From an uncultured cyanobacterium (GTDB lineage Bacteria > Cyanobacteriota > Cyanobacteriia > Leptolyngbyales > Leptolyngbyaceae): DNA of 64,000 nt. The position numbers were made by a program, and so were the translations under genes. This document shows positions 21,964 to 28,737 of the stretch, one piece after another (within the stretch, counting starts at the first letter, position 1; each line of letters starts with the position of its first letter). The stretch spans positions 1-64,000 of the forward strand of contig CAVYAN010000063.1 of assembly GCA_963766075.1 (NCBI GenBank), read 5' to 3'. Under the pieces are notes generated by a model, which did no database searches, was not told where the DNA came from, and saw nothing but the letters and a program-made list of their open reading frames with translations.

Positions 21964-24900
21964 CTATTTCTGAGCAGCCATTTTCTGATAGGTCTGGATA
22001 GATTGCCATGCGCTGTTCAGGTTGCCTTGCAAGAGGGCGGCAATCCCCTTGAGCGCTTGGAGTTCGGGAAGGGTAGGAGAAAGTTGCAGCGCCGTGTTGA
22101 GCGGGGCTTGGGCAGCAGCAGGCTGCAACGCATAGAGGTTGAGGAGGGCTAGGTAGGCATAGGGGTAGGGGTTTTGGGGATCAAGCTGGGCCAGGGTCTG
22201 GAAGGTAGCGATCGCAGACTTTACGTCCTTTTTCAAAACCTGAGCCAGGGCCAGGGTGTAGGTAAAGTTGCGGTTCTGGGGATCCTTCAGCAAGCGGTAG
22301 CCCATGGCCTGCTGCGCTTGGGTCAGGTAGTCCTGGCCGGGATTGTACTGATTCATCAACTCTACGGTTTGAAAGAGTTTGTCTAGGACTTTTGGGCCTT
22401 GGGGCAAAGTCGTGGCCAACAGCCGGAGACGGGTTAACAGGTCGAGATCCAAGGGCGTTAGCATGGGCGCGGCAGCAGGATCAAGGGTGAGGCGAACCGG
22501 TGGGGCAGCGATCGCCACGGTTTCTCCAGTTTGACGATTCTGATAAAGCACTTCCAGGGTATAGGTGCCAGGGATGGCCCGCTCAGGGGGCAGCATGGCC
22601 AACCGCTCCGTAAGCTGGAAGTCGGAGGTGGCCGTCATCCAGGTGGGCAGACCGGGTTGCAGGTTACCGTTGGCAATAGCATGGTCATGAATCCAAGTTG
22701 TGACTGTGGGTTGACCGGGCTTGGGTTTGCCGAAGGCATCCAGTTCGGGGGGCACAGGCACGGTGCTGGGATCCAGTTTCCAGTTGATTAAGACCAATCC
22801 AGGTTGCAGCGACTTCCAGGGTCCAGACCAGGTGTAGGTAATCGGAATCGGTTTGCCCGGAGGAGCAAGATCAGGCACCGTGACCTGAGTCAATTGAATC
22901 GGCGCAGTCAGGGGAGGGGCAACGGCTCCGGGCGACGCCGTAGCCGTGGGGTTTGGGCTGGGGGCGAAACCTGGAGGCGTAGGGGTGGGATTAGGCCCAG
23001 TCTGTCCGATCGGTAAGGTTGGCAGAGGCTTGATCTCAACGGCGGCGGTGCGCCGCTGGTAAAGGCTAAACTGGCCGCGATCTGCCGAGATCCCAGGTTT
23101 TGATCCGCTGGAACAAGGGGGAATTGAGGCGTTGCTCCAGCCGTTGTTCCGCAATGCTTTTCGGCGGCATGGGACCACCCGTTTGGGCCAAAAACCAAGA
23201 CAAAGCCCGCACTTCGGCCTCGACTCGATCCGATTTTTTACCGACATCACGGGCATATACCTGAAAGTTTTGGCGCAGTCCAGCGTAGGTGAGATTGTGC
23301 TGATTCAGCTCAGGGCTGGAGGTCAACAGCCCCAGGGTAGATTTTTCGTAGGGATCGGCTTGCACCACCGCATCCACAATTTCGTTTAGGGGAAACTCTG
23401 GGCCAGTATACGCTCGTCGGGTGGCAAAATCGGTTTGTTGGTGAAGGGGCAACGGAGCGCTCAGTTGATTGGGAAAGAGGTGATACACCGTCATGGCCAA
23501 GGACAGGCCAATCAGGCCCCACCGCAGAAACACACCAGGAATATTCCAGCGCCAGAGCCGCCAGCGCTTGGGAAAGAGGGTCCAGCCTAAAGCCACGAGC
23601 AGGGCAAAGGCCGGGAGCATGGGCATAACGTAGCGCAGGTCTTTGTTGGGATTGAGGGCATTCAGGACATACCCCCCCATCAAGAACAGGCTGAGCCACA
23701 GCAGCGATCGCCGCGCGGATTGATACACCCGCAATCGCCCCTGCGACGACTGTGATCCCTCACGCCCCAGCCAGTCTCGGCTGAGGGTGGACCGCTTCCA
23801 ATAAAACACCAACCCCAATAGAGGTAGCAGCCAAATCCAGGACACGAGCTTAGGCAATCGCCACAGATAATACAGCCAACTCTCGATGGATGTGACGCTA
23901 GGGTCGCCCTCAGCCAAGGCCGGTTCCACGGTAGAACTTTGCACCGAGGTCAAAATCAACAGCCAACTGGCGCTAAACCATGGCCAGACCATCAGGGCAG
24001 CGACAGCGAGGGCCAGAGCCAGTTGCAACAGTCTCCCAGAGCCAGTTGCCGCAGAGCCACGAGAACAATCCACAGCAGGGGAAACAGGAAAAACAAGAGG
24101 GCGGTTTGTTTGACCAACAGGGCCAGCCCGAGACTGATACCAAAGGCGATCGCCCAAATCCATTGCCACAAAAACTGCGTCAGGGAAAAGCGCCATGGCA
24201 GCCGTGGGGCGGCGCGCGACAACTCGGGAAGGGGTTCGGGCCGTGGTTCAGGCCGTGGGGCCTCGGTGGGTTCAGCGATCGCGACCCAGACATTCTCCCC
24301 ACCACCGCCCGTCGCACTTTCACCCACCGCACCTTCACCTGCCGTACTCCCAACACTCCCAGCCACGCCACTCCCACCCTCTACAGGCGTCTGTAAGGCA
24401 ACGCTAGCCTCAGCGATCATCAGCGGCCCACCCAACCCGTCCCGGTGGGCAAACTGCCATTTCCCCTTCGCTTTGCCCCACCACACCGTCAGGCAAAAGA
24501 AACTTAGCGTCACCAACGCCACCAGCGGATAGTCAATCAAATAGTCCAGCCGAATACGATAGAGTCCCGGCATTACCAAGCAAATCAGTGCGGCCACCAA
24601 CCCCACGGTCACCGTAAACAGGTAACTCCCCAGCCCATACACCGCCAGGAGCAAAATGGCGCTAAACAACAGATTAATCAGCGTCGCGGTATCAAAACTC
24701 GTGCCCAAGCCGTTGAACAGCGGCACCGTCAGAGCATAGACCAACGGAGGATACTTGGTAGACGCCGTCCAAAAGCTGTACCACCAGTCACCGGACAGCC
24801 AATTGGCTTGCTGTACCAAGCGCCAGTACATCATGGCGCGGGTAAGATGCCCGCCTTGATCCCACCCGGGCACAGAATGATCCAAGGAAAACCAGAGGCG

Positions 24901-24984
24901 ATCGCCCGCCACCACCAATCCCCATAGCACCCCAATCCCCGGTAGCCCTACCAGCCACCACCCCTGTTGTCTGCGTTCAACCAC
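21964..24984 (-). CDS. GT-C (PMT/GT39-like) lipid-carrier glycosyltransferase with C-terminal TPR; split over three frames by two frameshifts
   Basis: WDQGGHL, KYPPLVY, DYLIDYPL, LVKQTALLF, NKDLRYVMP, C-terminal TPR. Frame junctions near 24035 and 23085. Confidence 0.85.
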
Positions 24985-25124: not shown

Positions 25125-27710
25125 CTAGGCCACCACAAAGTTGACTAATTTCCCCGGCACAACGATCGCCTTTTTAATTTCCTTGCCTTGAATAAATTTC
25201 TGAGCAACCTCCGACTCCCGCGCCAAACGTTCCAAATCCGCCTGGGTAGAGGCGGTAGGCACCTGAATGGTCCCCTTGGTTTTCCCCAAAATTTGAATCA
25301 CCAGGGTCATTTCATCGGCCACCAGTGCCGCTGGATCCACAAGGGGCCAGGATTGGCGGTGGATTGATTCGGTTTGCCCCAATCCCTGCCAAAGTTCATC
25401 GGCCAGATGGGGGGCAAAGGGGGCCAGCAACAGCAGCAAGGTAGTAATGCCCTCGGCATACACCGGCGACTGTTTATCACTGGCATCGCCCAGGGCATTG
25501 CTCAGCTTCATCAATTCCGAGACTGCCGTGTTGAATTGATTGTCAGTCAAATCCCCGGTAATTTCTTTGATAGCGATATGTATGGCCCGCCGTAACTCTT
25601 TTTCTGGCTTCGTCAGGGTTGCCGGATCCCGAGTAGTCGGGGGCAATGCCATCCCCTGAAATTCCGTCACCAAGCGCCATACCCGGTTCAAAAAGCGAAA
25701 TTGCCCTTCCACGTCCGCATCTTCCCACTCCAGATCTTTTTCCGGTGGGGCCTTAAACAGAATGAACATGCGGGCGGTGTCGGCCCCATACTTGGCGATC
25801 ACTTCGCCGGGGGCAATCCCGTTGTGCTTGGATTTGGACATTTTCTCATAGACCATTTCCAGGCGATCGCCCGTTTCGGGATCAACCGGATTGGCAAAAT
25901 CCGTGATGGCTTGCGGCATTACATACTTGCCCGTTTTGGGATTCTTATAGGTTTTGCCCTGGACCATACCCTGAGTCAATAGGCGCTGAAAGGGTTCATC
26001 GCACTGCAAATAGCCGCGATCGCGCATCACCTTCGTAAAGAAGCGGGAATACAGTAAGTGTAAAATCGCATGTTCAATCCCCCCAACATACTGATCAATC
26101 GGCATCCAATCTTTGGCAATGGCGCGATCAAACACCTCAGCCGCATTAGTAGCGTCGGGATAGCGCATATAGTACCACGACGAACAAATGAACGTATCCA
26201 TTGTATCGGTTTCCCGTTTCGCAGGCTGACCGCACGTAGGGCACGGCACATTGATCCAAGACTCCAACTTGGACAAGGGCGACGGCCCCCGTCCCGCAAA
26301 TTCCACCTCTTCCGGCAACTGCACGGGCAATTGGTCATCGGGAACGGGCACTGCCCCACAATCTGGACAATGAATAATCGGAATCGGACAGCCCCAGTAA
26401 CGCTGCCGGGAGATCAGCCAATCCCGCAGTCGATAATTGGTGGTGCCCGTCCCCTTGCCCTGGGCTTCTAACCAAGCAACGGCTTGTTCGACGCTCTGGC
26501 CTTTTTCTTTGCCTGCGGGCACGCCATCCAACGGCCCCGAGTTGACCATTACCCCATCCCCCGCGTGGGCCGCTGTCAGGGTGGCACCCTCTACCGGGTG
26601 GTCCGCGGGGCGATCTGCCGGTTGCACCACCACCTGAATATCTAAGCCAAATTTTTTGGCAAACTCAAAATCGCGCTGATCATGGGCCGGAACCGCCATG
26701 ATCGCCCCAGTGCCGTAGTCCACCAGCACATAATCGGCAATCCAGATGGGAATCTGCGCCCCATTGACAGGATTGGTGGCATAGCTGCCGGTCCAGACGC
26801 CGGTTTTCTCGCGACCTTCGGCGGTGCGATCCATTTCACTCAGGTTAGCGGCAGCCGCTTGGTAGTCGGCGATCGCCACTTGCTGCGCGGTGGTGGTTAA
26901 TTTATCGACTAAGGGATGCTCTGGCGACAACACCATAAAGGTGGCTCCCCACAGCGTGTCGGGGCGGGTGGTGTAGACGGTGATTTTGTCCCCTGTGGCA
27001 GTGGTGAAGGTGACATGGGCCCCCGTAGATTTGCCGATCCAGTTGGCTTGCATCAGCTTGACGCGATCGGGCCAGCCCCCCAGTTGGTCCAGATCCTGCA
27101 ACAACTGCTCGGCATAATCGGTAATTTTGAAGAACCACTGCCGCAGCAAGCGGCGCTCGACCTTGGCCCCCGATCGCCAGGATTTGCCTTCGCTATCCAC
27201 TTGCTCGTTGGCTAAAACGGTTTGGTCAATCGGATCCCAGTTGACCGTGGCGGATTTTTGGTAGGCCAAGCCCGCCTGGAAAAATTGCAGGAAAATCCAT
27301 TGTGTCCAGCGGTAATAGTCCGGCGAACAGGTGGTGACTTCTTTGTCCCAATCGAAGGAAATACCCAATTGGTCAAGCTGCGATCGCATCTGGGCAATGT
27401 TGGCATAGGTCCAGGTAGCCGGGGGAATCCCTCGCTCGATCGCGGCATTTTCTGCGGGCAAGCCAAAGGCATCCCAGCCCATAGGATTCAGAACGCGATA
27501 TCCCTGCATTCGCTTCAGACGGGCAATCACATCCACGATAGTGTAAACCCGCACATGCCCCATGTGCAGGTTACCGGAGGGATAGGGAAACATCGACAGG
27601 GCATAGAACTTCGGCTTGCTGCGGTCTGTTGATGTAGTATGCAGACCCTGCGCGATCCAAGCCTGCTGCCATTTTTCCTCAATCGTGCCGGGGGTATAAC
27701 GGGACTCCAC
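25125..27710 (-). CDS. leuS: Leucine--tRNA ligase
   Basis: [32 protein letters not shown] start (VESRY) preceded by AGGAG. Confidence 0.99.
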
Positions 27711-27847
27711 GGGTGTCTCTCCTGCCAAAGGGTGCCTAACTCACCTCTCATTCTAGAGGCTGGAGGGTATTGTAGCGGTCGGTAAAGGCGTTTTGCGATC
27801 CACTCACAATGTATCCCGCGCATTCCCGCCAGTAGCCCTGCCCAAAA

Positions 27848-28057
27848 TTAAGCCCAAAAAAAATCAGGAGGTGCAGGGCTGCTGCCTCCTGATTGATTGG
27901 ATCCGTTAGGATCGAGATGATTCGATGCGTCTTTGAGCTTTTGCCGGAGCATTTGCAGTTGTTTTCGGCGTTGGCGCTGACGGGCCGATCCGCCCTTGCC
28001 TTTGGAGTTCCGTCCTTCTTGGCGGGGCGACTCCCAGCGTTTGAGTTGGCGAGCCAT
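27848..28057 (-). CDS. Small basic protein with KGKGGS motif; candidate ArfA/BrfA-like alternative ribosome-rescue factor
   Basis: Strong SD (AGGAGGActtATG); 15 K/R in the first 42 aa; terminator inside the ORF. The ORF is well supported, the function is inferred. Confidence 0.6.
   Translation of the reverse strand: MARQLKRWESPRQEGRNSKGKGGSARQRQRRKQLQMLRQKLKDASNHLDPNGSNQSGGSSPAPPDFFWA
27856..27894 (-). terminator. Intrinsic terminator inside the small basic ORF, upstream of its stop codon
   Basis: Perfect 10-bp stem aatcaggagg/cctcctgatt with an 8-T run on the minus strand (27863-27856); stop codon at 27850-27848. Confidence 0.85.
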
Positions 28058-28223
28058 AAGTCCTCCTAGTGAACCTCTTTCTCCATTGTGACACAGACTA
28101 TTTTGGAGTGTGGGTCTAGAGATGCCAGGGATTTTTAGAAATTCCCGGCATCTGAACGTAAAGAAATCTGGCGGGTCGGGGGCCGGAGGGGAGCATTGGC
28201 GCTAAGGTGGGGGAAAAGGCGAT

Positions 28224-28737
28224 GTGACGTGGACTATGGTTACTCTATCCAGTGAAAATTCGGTCAGTGAAAATCCGGCCAGTGAACCCTTGGCAAATCT
28301 ATCTCCGGGCGACAGTTCTAGGGCGCAGTCTAGCGCTGTGGTGGACCTGATTGAAACTGTCATTGATAGTCTTGATAGTGACAATACCGCCATGGTCAGC
28401 CATGGTGATGGTGGCTACATTTGGAAATTTAAGTACGGTAGTGTAGAAGTGTTGGTGCAACTGACGGGAACCACCGACGATGATACGCTGACGGCATGGT
28501 CGGCAGTTATGAAACTGCCCGCGAAAGACGAAGTTCAATTGCTCCGCCAGTTGTTGGAGATGAACTGGACCGACACACTGGAAGCCCGGTTTGGCATTCT
28601 AAATGGGGAGATTGTGGTCCTGTCTCGAGCAATCGCTGGCGGAACTGTCTCCGGGGGAAGTCTCCCGCGCTATTACCCTCGTTGCCACACTGGCCGACGC
28701 CCATGATGAACGCCTCCAGGAAACCTTTGGTCTATAA
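28224..28737 (+). CDS. YbjN/CesT-like domain protein; frameshifted near 28630
   Basis: WKFKYGSVEVLVQLTG, LLEMNW...EARFGI; continues in another frame as SLAELSPGEVSRAITLVATLADAHDERLQETFGL*. Confidence 0.85.

Follow-up and report, generated by a model that had tools for sequence, protein, structure and literature searches.

The window analysed here, a 64,000-nucleotide stretch of DNA from an uncultured cyanobacterium, carries on its minus strand a 69-codon open reading frame (ORF; 27848..28057) for a 69 amino acid protein of an unnamed family, delimited from the ORF list and from its homologues. As an earlier note on this DNA had claimed, a Shine–Dalgarno-like AGGAGG (28062..28067) lies 4 nt 5' of the ATG; the strong signal to which the note drew attention is particular to this locus, with many homologues showing none. 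The very basic N-terminal half that had been claimed is also there, with 15 lysine or arginine residues versus 2 aspartate or glutamate residues within the first 42. Homologue conservation and structural modelling place a very basic conserved core (pI about 12) at residues 5-41 (27935..28045), comprising an extended N-half and a predicted helix that begins at residue 24. Beyond the core, on the same strand, are a variable, hydrophilic linker without in-frame stops (27895..27934), a terminator hairpin that is read in frame (27862..27894) and a run of eight U residues (27856..27863) that marks the predicted 3' end of a stop-less transcript. The first in-frame stop, a TAA (27848..27850) whose position varies among homologues, is found 5 nt past the U run.

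The hairpin has a predicted folding energy of -22.5 kcal/mol (z -3.2), with one of 200 shuffled sequences folding equally well. The arms of its 10-bp outer stem (27894-27885 and 27871-27862, minus strand) are separated by 13 nt that include a 3-bp inner helix, and for this reason a simple terminator scan misses it. The element had been described as a textbook terminator: the 10-bp stem, the U8 run, the in-frame position and the TAA 5 nt further on all stand, but the long interior is not quite textbook. The 202 nt from the ATG to the end of U8 contain no in-frame stops, and a transcript terminating at the U run comprises 67 codons and no stop codon. A contig from a related strain (sequencing run X3) covers the ORF and differs from it by substitutions, no indel being listed within the frame; runs X1 and X2 gave no coverage of it. 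In P0002, a metagenome protein with 94% identity, the frame likewise passes through this hairpin and extends to 98 amino acids. The layout is therefore not an assembly error, as the earlier note had feared it might be, and the TAA just past the U run is incidental.

The neighbouring genes are leuS (25125..27728, minus strand), a downstream neighbour in this genome only and without conserved partnership according to gene calling and locus clustering, and upstream a divergent gene for a YbjN-domain protein (28224..28706, plus strand), recognised by gene calling and domain search. A reading of the ORF as a leuS attenuator or leader was rejected, leuS being downstream at just one of the clustered loci. 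In the gap that separates the terminator from leuS there is a TACAAT with a second, weak hexamer upstream of it (27800-27770, minus strand); it fails a consensus scan but is a possible promoter for leuS itself. Further along the minus strand, two overlapping ORFs (23992-24984 and 23066-24196, spanning 23066-24984) and another at 21964-23256 look like the frameshift-split pieces of a single membrane glycosyltransferase-like gene.

A cyanobacterial family with a conserved core

Searches for related proteins returned 379 relatives of similar length, those with names being cyanobacterial hypothetical proteins. A profile search of 1.84 billion representative sequences gave 454 matches, and in the best 150 of these the alignment covers the core in every case. 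The family is present in 86 of 301 genomes sampled from the phylum, all of them from the same class as the window genome, and is absent from 173 genomes of the last nine families sampled, whose listed members belong to other classes. With a broader profile it is found in 236 of 401 genomes of the class, nearly always as a single copy, and in none of the 46 genomes of one family of small genomes. It is absent from 72,556 plasmid records and from annotated phages.

Across 123 unique core sequences, variation is highest at third codon positions (0.43 versus 0.18 and 0.09), with 120,169 synonymous versus 57,377 non-synonymous codon differences. Since variation in residues 5-41 is concentrated in this way, the family is, as judged from its codon-position pattern, a real protein under selection. 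Its extended N-half follows the pattern LK.[WH]ESPR..GRN.K, and the motif KG[KR]GG is found at 177/186 cellular loci and 5/22 viral loci (replaced at 9/186 and 17/22, respectively). AlphaFold2 predicts a confident helix at residues 24-46, an extended N-half of low confidence and no beta-strand; the model as a whole is a single helix with a pTM of 0.40. Neither Foldseek with this model nor a search of PDB sequences gave a match, and no Pfam, NCBIfam or PHROGs family scored above its cut-off, Pfam giving only DUF6800 and Syntaxin below it. The ESM Atlas returned unnamed clusters at 0.86-0.90 and no named match. The protein has no GGQ motif. At one locus (L232, genome G350) a premature TAG interrupts the core whilst the linker and terminator are intact, and this gene is either a pseudogene or a sequence error.

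A gene for tRNA-Leu(CAA) is located upstream on the same strand at 24/86, 17/46 and about 20/59 loci, mostly 21-84 nt from the start codon and often behind one conserved protein gene. At two of these loci (L050 and L021), inspection by eye shows a sigma-70-like promoter ahead of the tRNA, and tRNA and ORF are not separated by a terminator, so the gene is there probably a tRNA trailer. The tRNA gene is found directly 5', at about 20-85 nt and with no intervening terminator, at L039, L041, L047-L050, L052-L054, L056, L057 and others; in many lineages the family gene resembles a tRNA 3' trailer. In the window genome itself, tRNA-Leu(CAA) sits on another contig. The genes downstream vary, with the nearest ORF being convergent at 61 and co-directional at 62 of 123 loci, and the clustered loci have no conserved partner protein gene on that side.

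The Nostoc PCC 7120 homologue has left a trace in the literature. Row 18 of Table S3 in PMC4734099 lists a predicted sRNA (chromosome 179863-179662, reverse) whose 201-nt segment starts at a mapped 5' end, finishes at a predicted terminator, is represented by 8 reads and has 42 homologues in 89 genomes; the comment in the table reads 'putative peptide according to RNAcode'. We find that this segment encodes a member of the present family and, by eye, has no in-frame stop. The text of PMC4734099 makes no mention of the entry, of the missing stop codon or of a function. The entry shows weak transcription of a family homologue, its 3' end being a prediction. A search for three peptide motifs in a Nostoc proteogenomics paper (PMC8557916), covering 10 of its supplements, found none; a protein so rich in lysine and arginine yields very short tryptic peptides.

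Terminators within the reading frame

The scan of all 86 loci of the phylum sample asked for a U-rich run preceded by a hairpin at least as stable as -7 kcal/mol. In this unbiased sample the U run begins ahead of the first in-frame stop at 81/86 loci, where shuffling leads one to expect about 21 open frames, and the stop ends past the eighth base of the U run at 80/86. Of the five others, L092 and L107 have an in-frame hairpin by eye, L127 is cut by the end of its contig, and L091 and L131 stop right after the core. Forty-six named loci, which partly overlap the phylum sample, behave similarly: 42 pass the scan and another does so on inspection by eye, whilst one is cut and two of Pseudanabaena type stop at 46 amino acids. 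A second sample of 59 loci was deliberately chosen for short frames and divergent families; here the terminator is inside the frame at 43 loci, 12 are core-only genes of 41-47 amino acids with a normal stop, and of the remainder one has a premature stop, one is a fragment and two are long frames that give no strict match. The earlier note had argued for a nonstop layout from one sequence, and the comparison of homologues upholds it: the first ~41 amino acids are conserved, the tails are variable and the terminator comes before the stop at the great majority of loci. Neither of the sequence-level findings that it had named as telling against the layout, an indel or homologues stopping upstream of their terminators, was encountered.

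Several controls bear on these counts, whose statistical weight is overstated by the inclusion of non-independent kin. When the sequence from the core end to the U run is shuffled, the frame stays open with a mean probability of 0.24. The other two frames contain stops at 15/81 and 61/81 loci, the second figure being inflated by the asparagine-rich linker. Applied to 1659 long ORFs of the window genome, the same scan gives a match within the last 150 nt in 197. The U run occurs in all three frames (39/23/19), with the in-frame stop following 5-250 nt past it, and tail lengths resemble off-frame distances on 100 unique hairpins (p 0.16) and in the named set (p 0.71); the figure for the 81 loci (p 0.04) includes close kin whose tail overlaps a convergent gene. 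At L083, L101, L105, L110-L114, L116, L119, L121 and L129 the read-through tail overlaps a convergent gene that by eye looks MerR-like, and this overlap accounts for the long, similar tails of this group.

The comparison of homologues shows a putative nonstop mRNA segment made up of a conserved basic core of ~41 amino acids, a stop-free linker and an in-frame terminator-like hairpin with its U run. The linker measures 26-152 nt, the total frame 58-159 amino acids and the predicted nonstop product 50-94 amino acids, with a median of 63. Hairpins of different lineages look unrelated in sequence by eye, so that it is the layout that appears to have been kept rather than one element, and this points to selection on the nonstop layout itself. 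We regard it as highly probable that the layout is a nonstop, tmRNA-controlled one. The signature of a terminator before the stop, together with its controls, offers a general way of finding such genes.

The same core is found in viruses. IMG/VR contigs yielded 23 loci, of which one partial match (L199) was dropped to leave 22 (L177-L198). Seventeen of the 22 consist of the core alone and end at a normal stop, the other five, which are closely related, carry an in-frame terminator, and at 13 GKGG has given way to SPKR. Neighbouring genes encode baseplate, tail, anti-repressor, 2OG-Fe(II) oxygenase, DNA ligase and HNH proteins, and one 119-kb contig carries two copies (L175 and L176). At L187, L189, L190, L197 and L198 a TTGACA lies inside the in-frame hairpin, about 138-158 nt from the start codon, and may also serve the following promoter as its -35 box. 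Amongst cellular members, a Gloeobacter morelensis protein (P0484) is a core-only form of 44 amino acids, and at L091 (G182) a 43 amino acid core-only gene has, no more than about 15 nt past its stop, an ORF that by eye resembles rimM, a ribosome maturation gene. Since some lineages and most viral loci have only the core and a normal stop, the switch is dispensable: it is an optional addition to a core that makes up the entire functional unit.

A candidate back-up rescue factor and its rivals

A published survey of 162 cyanobacterial genomes lists no ArfA or BrfA homologue, with RqcH in 161/162 and ArfB in 90/162 (PMC11633108, Table 1). The window genome has SmpB, RF1, RF2, ArfB and RqcH. No tmRNA gene was found above cut-off in this 85% complete assembly, smpB being present; tmRNA was found in 8/8 genomes of the same family, and the gene is probably unassembled here. 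By hand count, 39 of 128 genomes of the class carry both the present family and ArfB, 47 the family only, 19 ArfB only and 23 neither, so there is no complementary distribution of the two across these 128 genomes; the 23 in which these searches found neither may depend on RqcH or have a further factor that has escaped recognition.

On the analysis as a whole, the family probably serves oxygenic cyanobacteria as a back-up ribosome-rescue factor that arose independently of ArfA and BrfA yet is wired in the same manner. Transcription would very probably end at the U run to give a stop-less mRNA, on which the ribosome would reach the 3' end carrying a chain of ~63 amino acids (67 at this locus). 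Very probably too, tmRNA–SmpB would tag this chain for degradation, and the protein would accumulate only when trans-translation is limiting. By analogy with known factors, protein that escapes would use its basic helix (residues 24-46) to bind ribosomes whose mRNA channel is empty, the helix perhaps entering the channel as the SmpB tail does, and the extended N-half would help a class I release factor, most likely RF2, to hydrolyse peptidyl-tRNA. Without a GGQ motif the family protein should not be able to carry out this hydrolysis alone, and release factor-dependent rescue is, in our estimate, the likely mode of action. On this view the switch would be missing from core-only genes, which end at a normal stop.

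A fuller account can be offered more tentatively, and we would not put it at even odds. On this account the family would be a new, independently evolved class of release factor-recruiting proteins that is confined to oxygenic cyanobacteria, has a helical tail like that of SmpB and often occupies the 3' trailer of tRNA-Leu(CAA). Its tmRNA switch would have been rebuilt from unrelated hairpins in different lineages, and cyanophages would have acquired the gene, mostly without the switch, so that during infection host ribosomes stay active even if tmRNA is saturated or RNA is cut by host defences. Counting against rescue, no rescue factor showed a significant link to the family in sequence or fold, the KH motif is all but absent, RqcH and often ArfB are already there (both in this genome), the family and ArfB are not complementary in distribution, the switch is missing from some lineages and most viral loci, and no tmRNA was found in this assembly.

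A ribosome binder under tmRNA control need not recruit a release factor. It might instead protect, silence or split stalled ribosomes, or feed the RqcH pathway, when trans-translation is overloaded. The in-frame terminators fit such a protein equally, RqcH is nearly universal in cyanobacteria (PMC11633108), the tRNA-gene link suggests co-expression with the translation machinery, and the family has a long basic helix in place of the ArfA loop and no predicted beta-strand. The low confidence of the N-half model, however, means that the missing strand says little, and both of the small basic proteins of this layout that have been studied experimentally in the papers cited here, ArfA and BrfA, recruit RF2; we consider this alternative rather unlikely. 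Were the protein a sensor of tmRNA load with a non-ribosomal target, such as a regulator that binds RNA or DNA, or an inhibitor of growth whose level tagging keeps down, its very basic core, the low read count in Nostoc (8 reads; PMC4734099) and the phage copies adjoining anti-repressor genes would be accommodated. Most carriers nevertheless have a single chromosomal copy, the plasmid records contain none, no partner protein gene is conserved downstream, and constitutive core-only versions in cells argue against toxicity, making this reading improbable.

It is also conceivable that this is an ordinary small ribosome-associated protein, resembling cS24, that is expressed by read-through of a leaky or incidental hairpin, for example an old terminator of tRNA-Leu(CAA) or of a convergent gene. 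The frequency of tRNA-Leu(CAA) upstream, the convergent ORF at about half of the loci (61/123) and the existence of normal-stop versions are compatible with this idea, but the hairpin is in frame also where no tRNA is nearby, this window included, and where the next gene is co-directional (62/123). Such an account leaves unexplained the stop-free linker and the random tails, and cS24 (COG5794) is another family; we judge it distinctly improbable. That the RNA is the functional product, as an sRNA or tRNA trailer in which the frame is secondary, is hardly credible: the gene is indeed often a tRNA trailer and is listed among the predicted sRNAs of PMC4734099, but that same Table S3 flags a putative peptide, and the codon-position pattern and excess of synonymous differences show selection on a protein.

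Returning to the rescue reading, if it is true then the family would represent a new class of rescue factor and its use by phages; otherwise it would have a different tmRNA-controlled function. Reviews predict that there are more small rescue factors that escape sequence searches (PMC8012679), and the family is a concrete and widespread candidate: one of its loci lies in Nostoc PCC 7120, a tractable model, the switch is present in some natural variants and missing from others, and phages carry copies. The earlier note knew of no described cyanobacterial ArfA-type factor, and none was found in the literature by a search that lay outside subscription journals and bioRxiv supplements.

Comparison with known rescue factors

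A close parallel in layout is B. subtilis brfA (YqkK), in which the same arrangement ends transcription inside the gene and leads to SsrA-dependent degradation (PMC6881298). Like the family, BrfA has about 70 codons (71), is very basic, has a rho-independent terminator inside its coding region, gives a nonstop product of ~62 amino acids, lacks GGQ and has a narrow phylogenetic range (PMC6881298). BrfA and ArfA both recruit RF2 (PMC6881298, PMC8012679), and low interspecies compatibility has been reported for BrfA. BrfA differs in having N-terminal helices and a KH motif, where the family has an extended N-half and a single C-terminal helix, and the family profiles A1 and A5 gave no match at E<=10 to PDB chain sequences, BrfA included.

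E. coli ArfA (YhdL, PF03889), with 72 codons, resembles the family in size and charge, in having about 46-48 ordered residues, and in being made from a nonstop mRNA by way of an internal stem-loop with a poorly conserved, dispensable tail (PMC8012679). Its sequence contains the KGKGS motif on which the earlier note had relied, and ArfA N.KGKG....R aligns in register with family residues 17-26. As an argument this is weak. The motif is kept at nearly all cellular loci, but the hhalign alignment to ArfA, whose profile holds close enterobacterial relatives only, has a probability of 9.6%, with 8 of 200 column shuffles scoring as high; the alignment vanishes with the viral profile, and the motif is replaced in most phage members. 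The PF03889 profile matched neither the ORF protein, nor 40 family members, nor anything in the genome, and was found in the E. coli control. The tail of ArfA forms a loop whereas that of the family is predicted to be helical, and the KH motif common to ArfA and BrfA, which binds the mRNA entry channel (PMC8012679), is found in just 1 of 186 family cores.

ArfT of Francisella tularensis, which recruits RF1 or RF2, is of core-only size at about 40 amino acids and has a charged helix but no GGQ of its own (PMC6514570, PMC8012679). Unlike the family, ArfT belongs to a repeat family spread over many phyla (Burroughs and Aravind), and the accounts of it cited here describe no nonstop control; in Pfam and NCBIfam, no match of the present family to a named one rose above cut-off. 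Identity with ArfB (NF006718) was rejected, as the family has no GGQ domain and no profile similarity and the genome has a separate ArfB; no similarity was found to the SmpB or ArfB of this genome. cS24 (Ssr3189, COG5794) is likewise a small basic cyanobacterial protein with a conserved N-half and a variable tail, and is ribosome-associated (PMC13640635). Identity was again rejected, the two being different genes in Stanieria PCC 7437 (3204 and 1591 versus 4311); unlike the family, cS24 is found in picocyanobacteria and algae and is abundant, with no nonstop layout described in that source.

By sequence, then, the family does not appear to be a member of ArfA, BrfA or ArfB. What it shares with ArfA and BrfA are traits of functional class: a conserved terminator within the ORF, a small basic N-terminal part, a non-conserved tail and no GGQ. 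What is new here is the frequent trailing of tRNA-Leu(CAA) and the existence of core-only versions with a normal stop.
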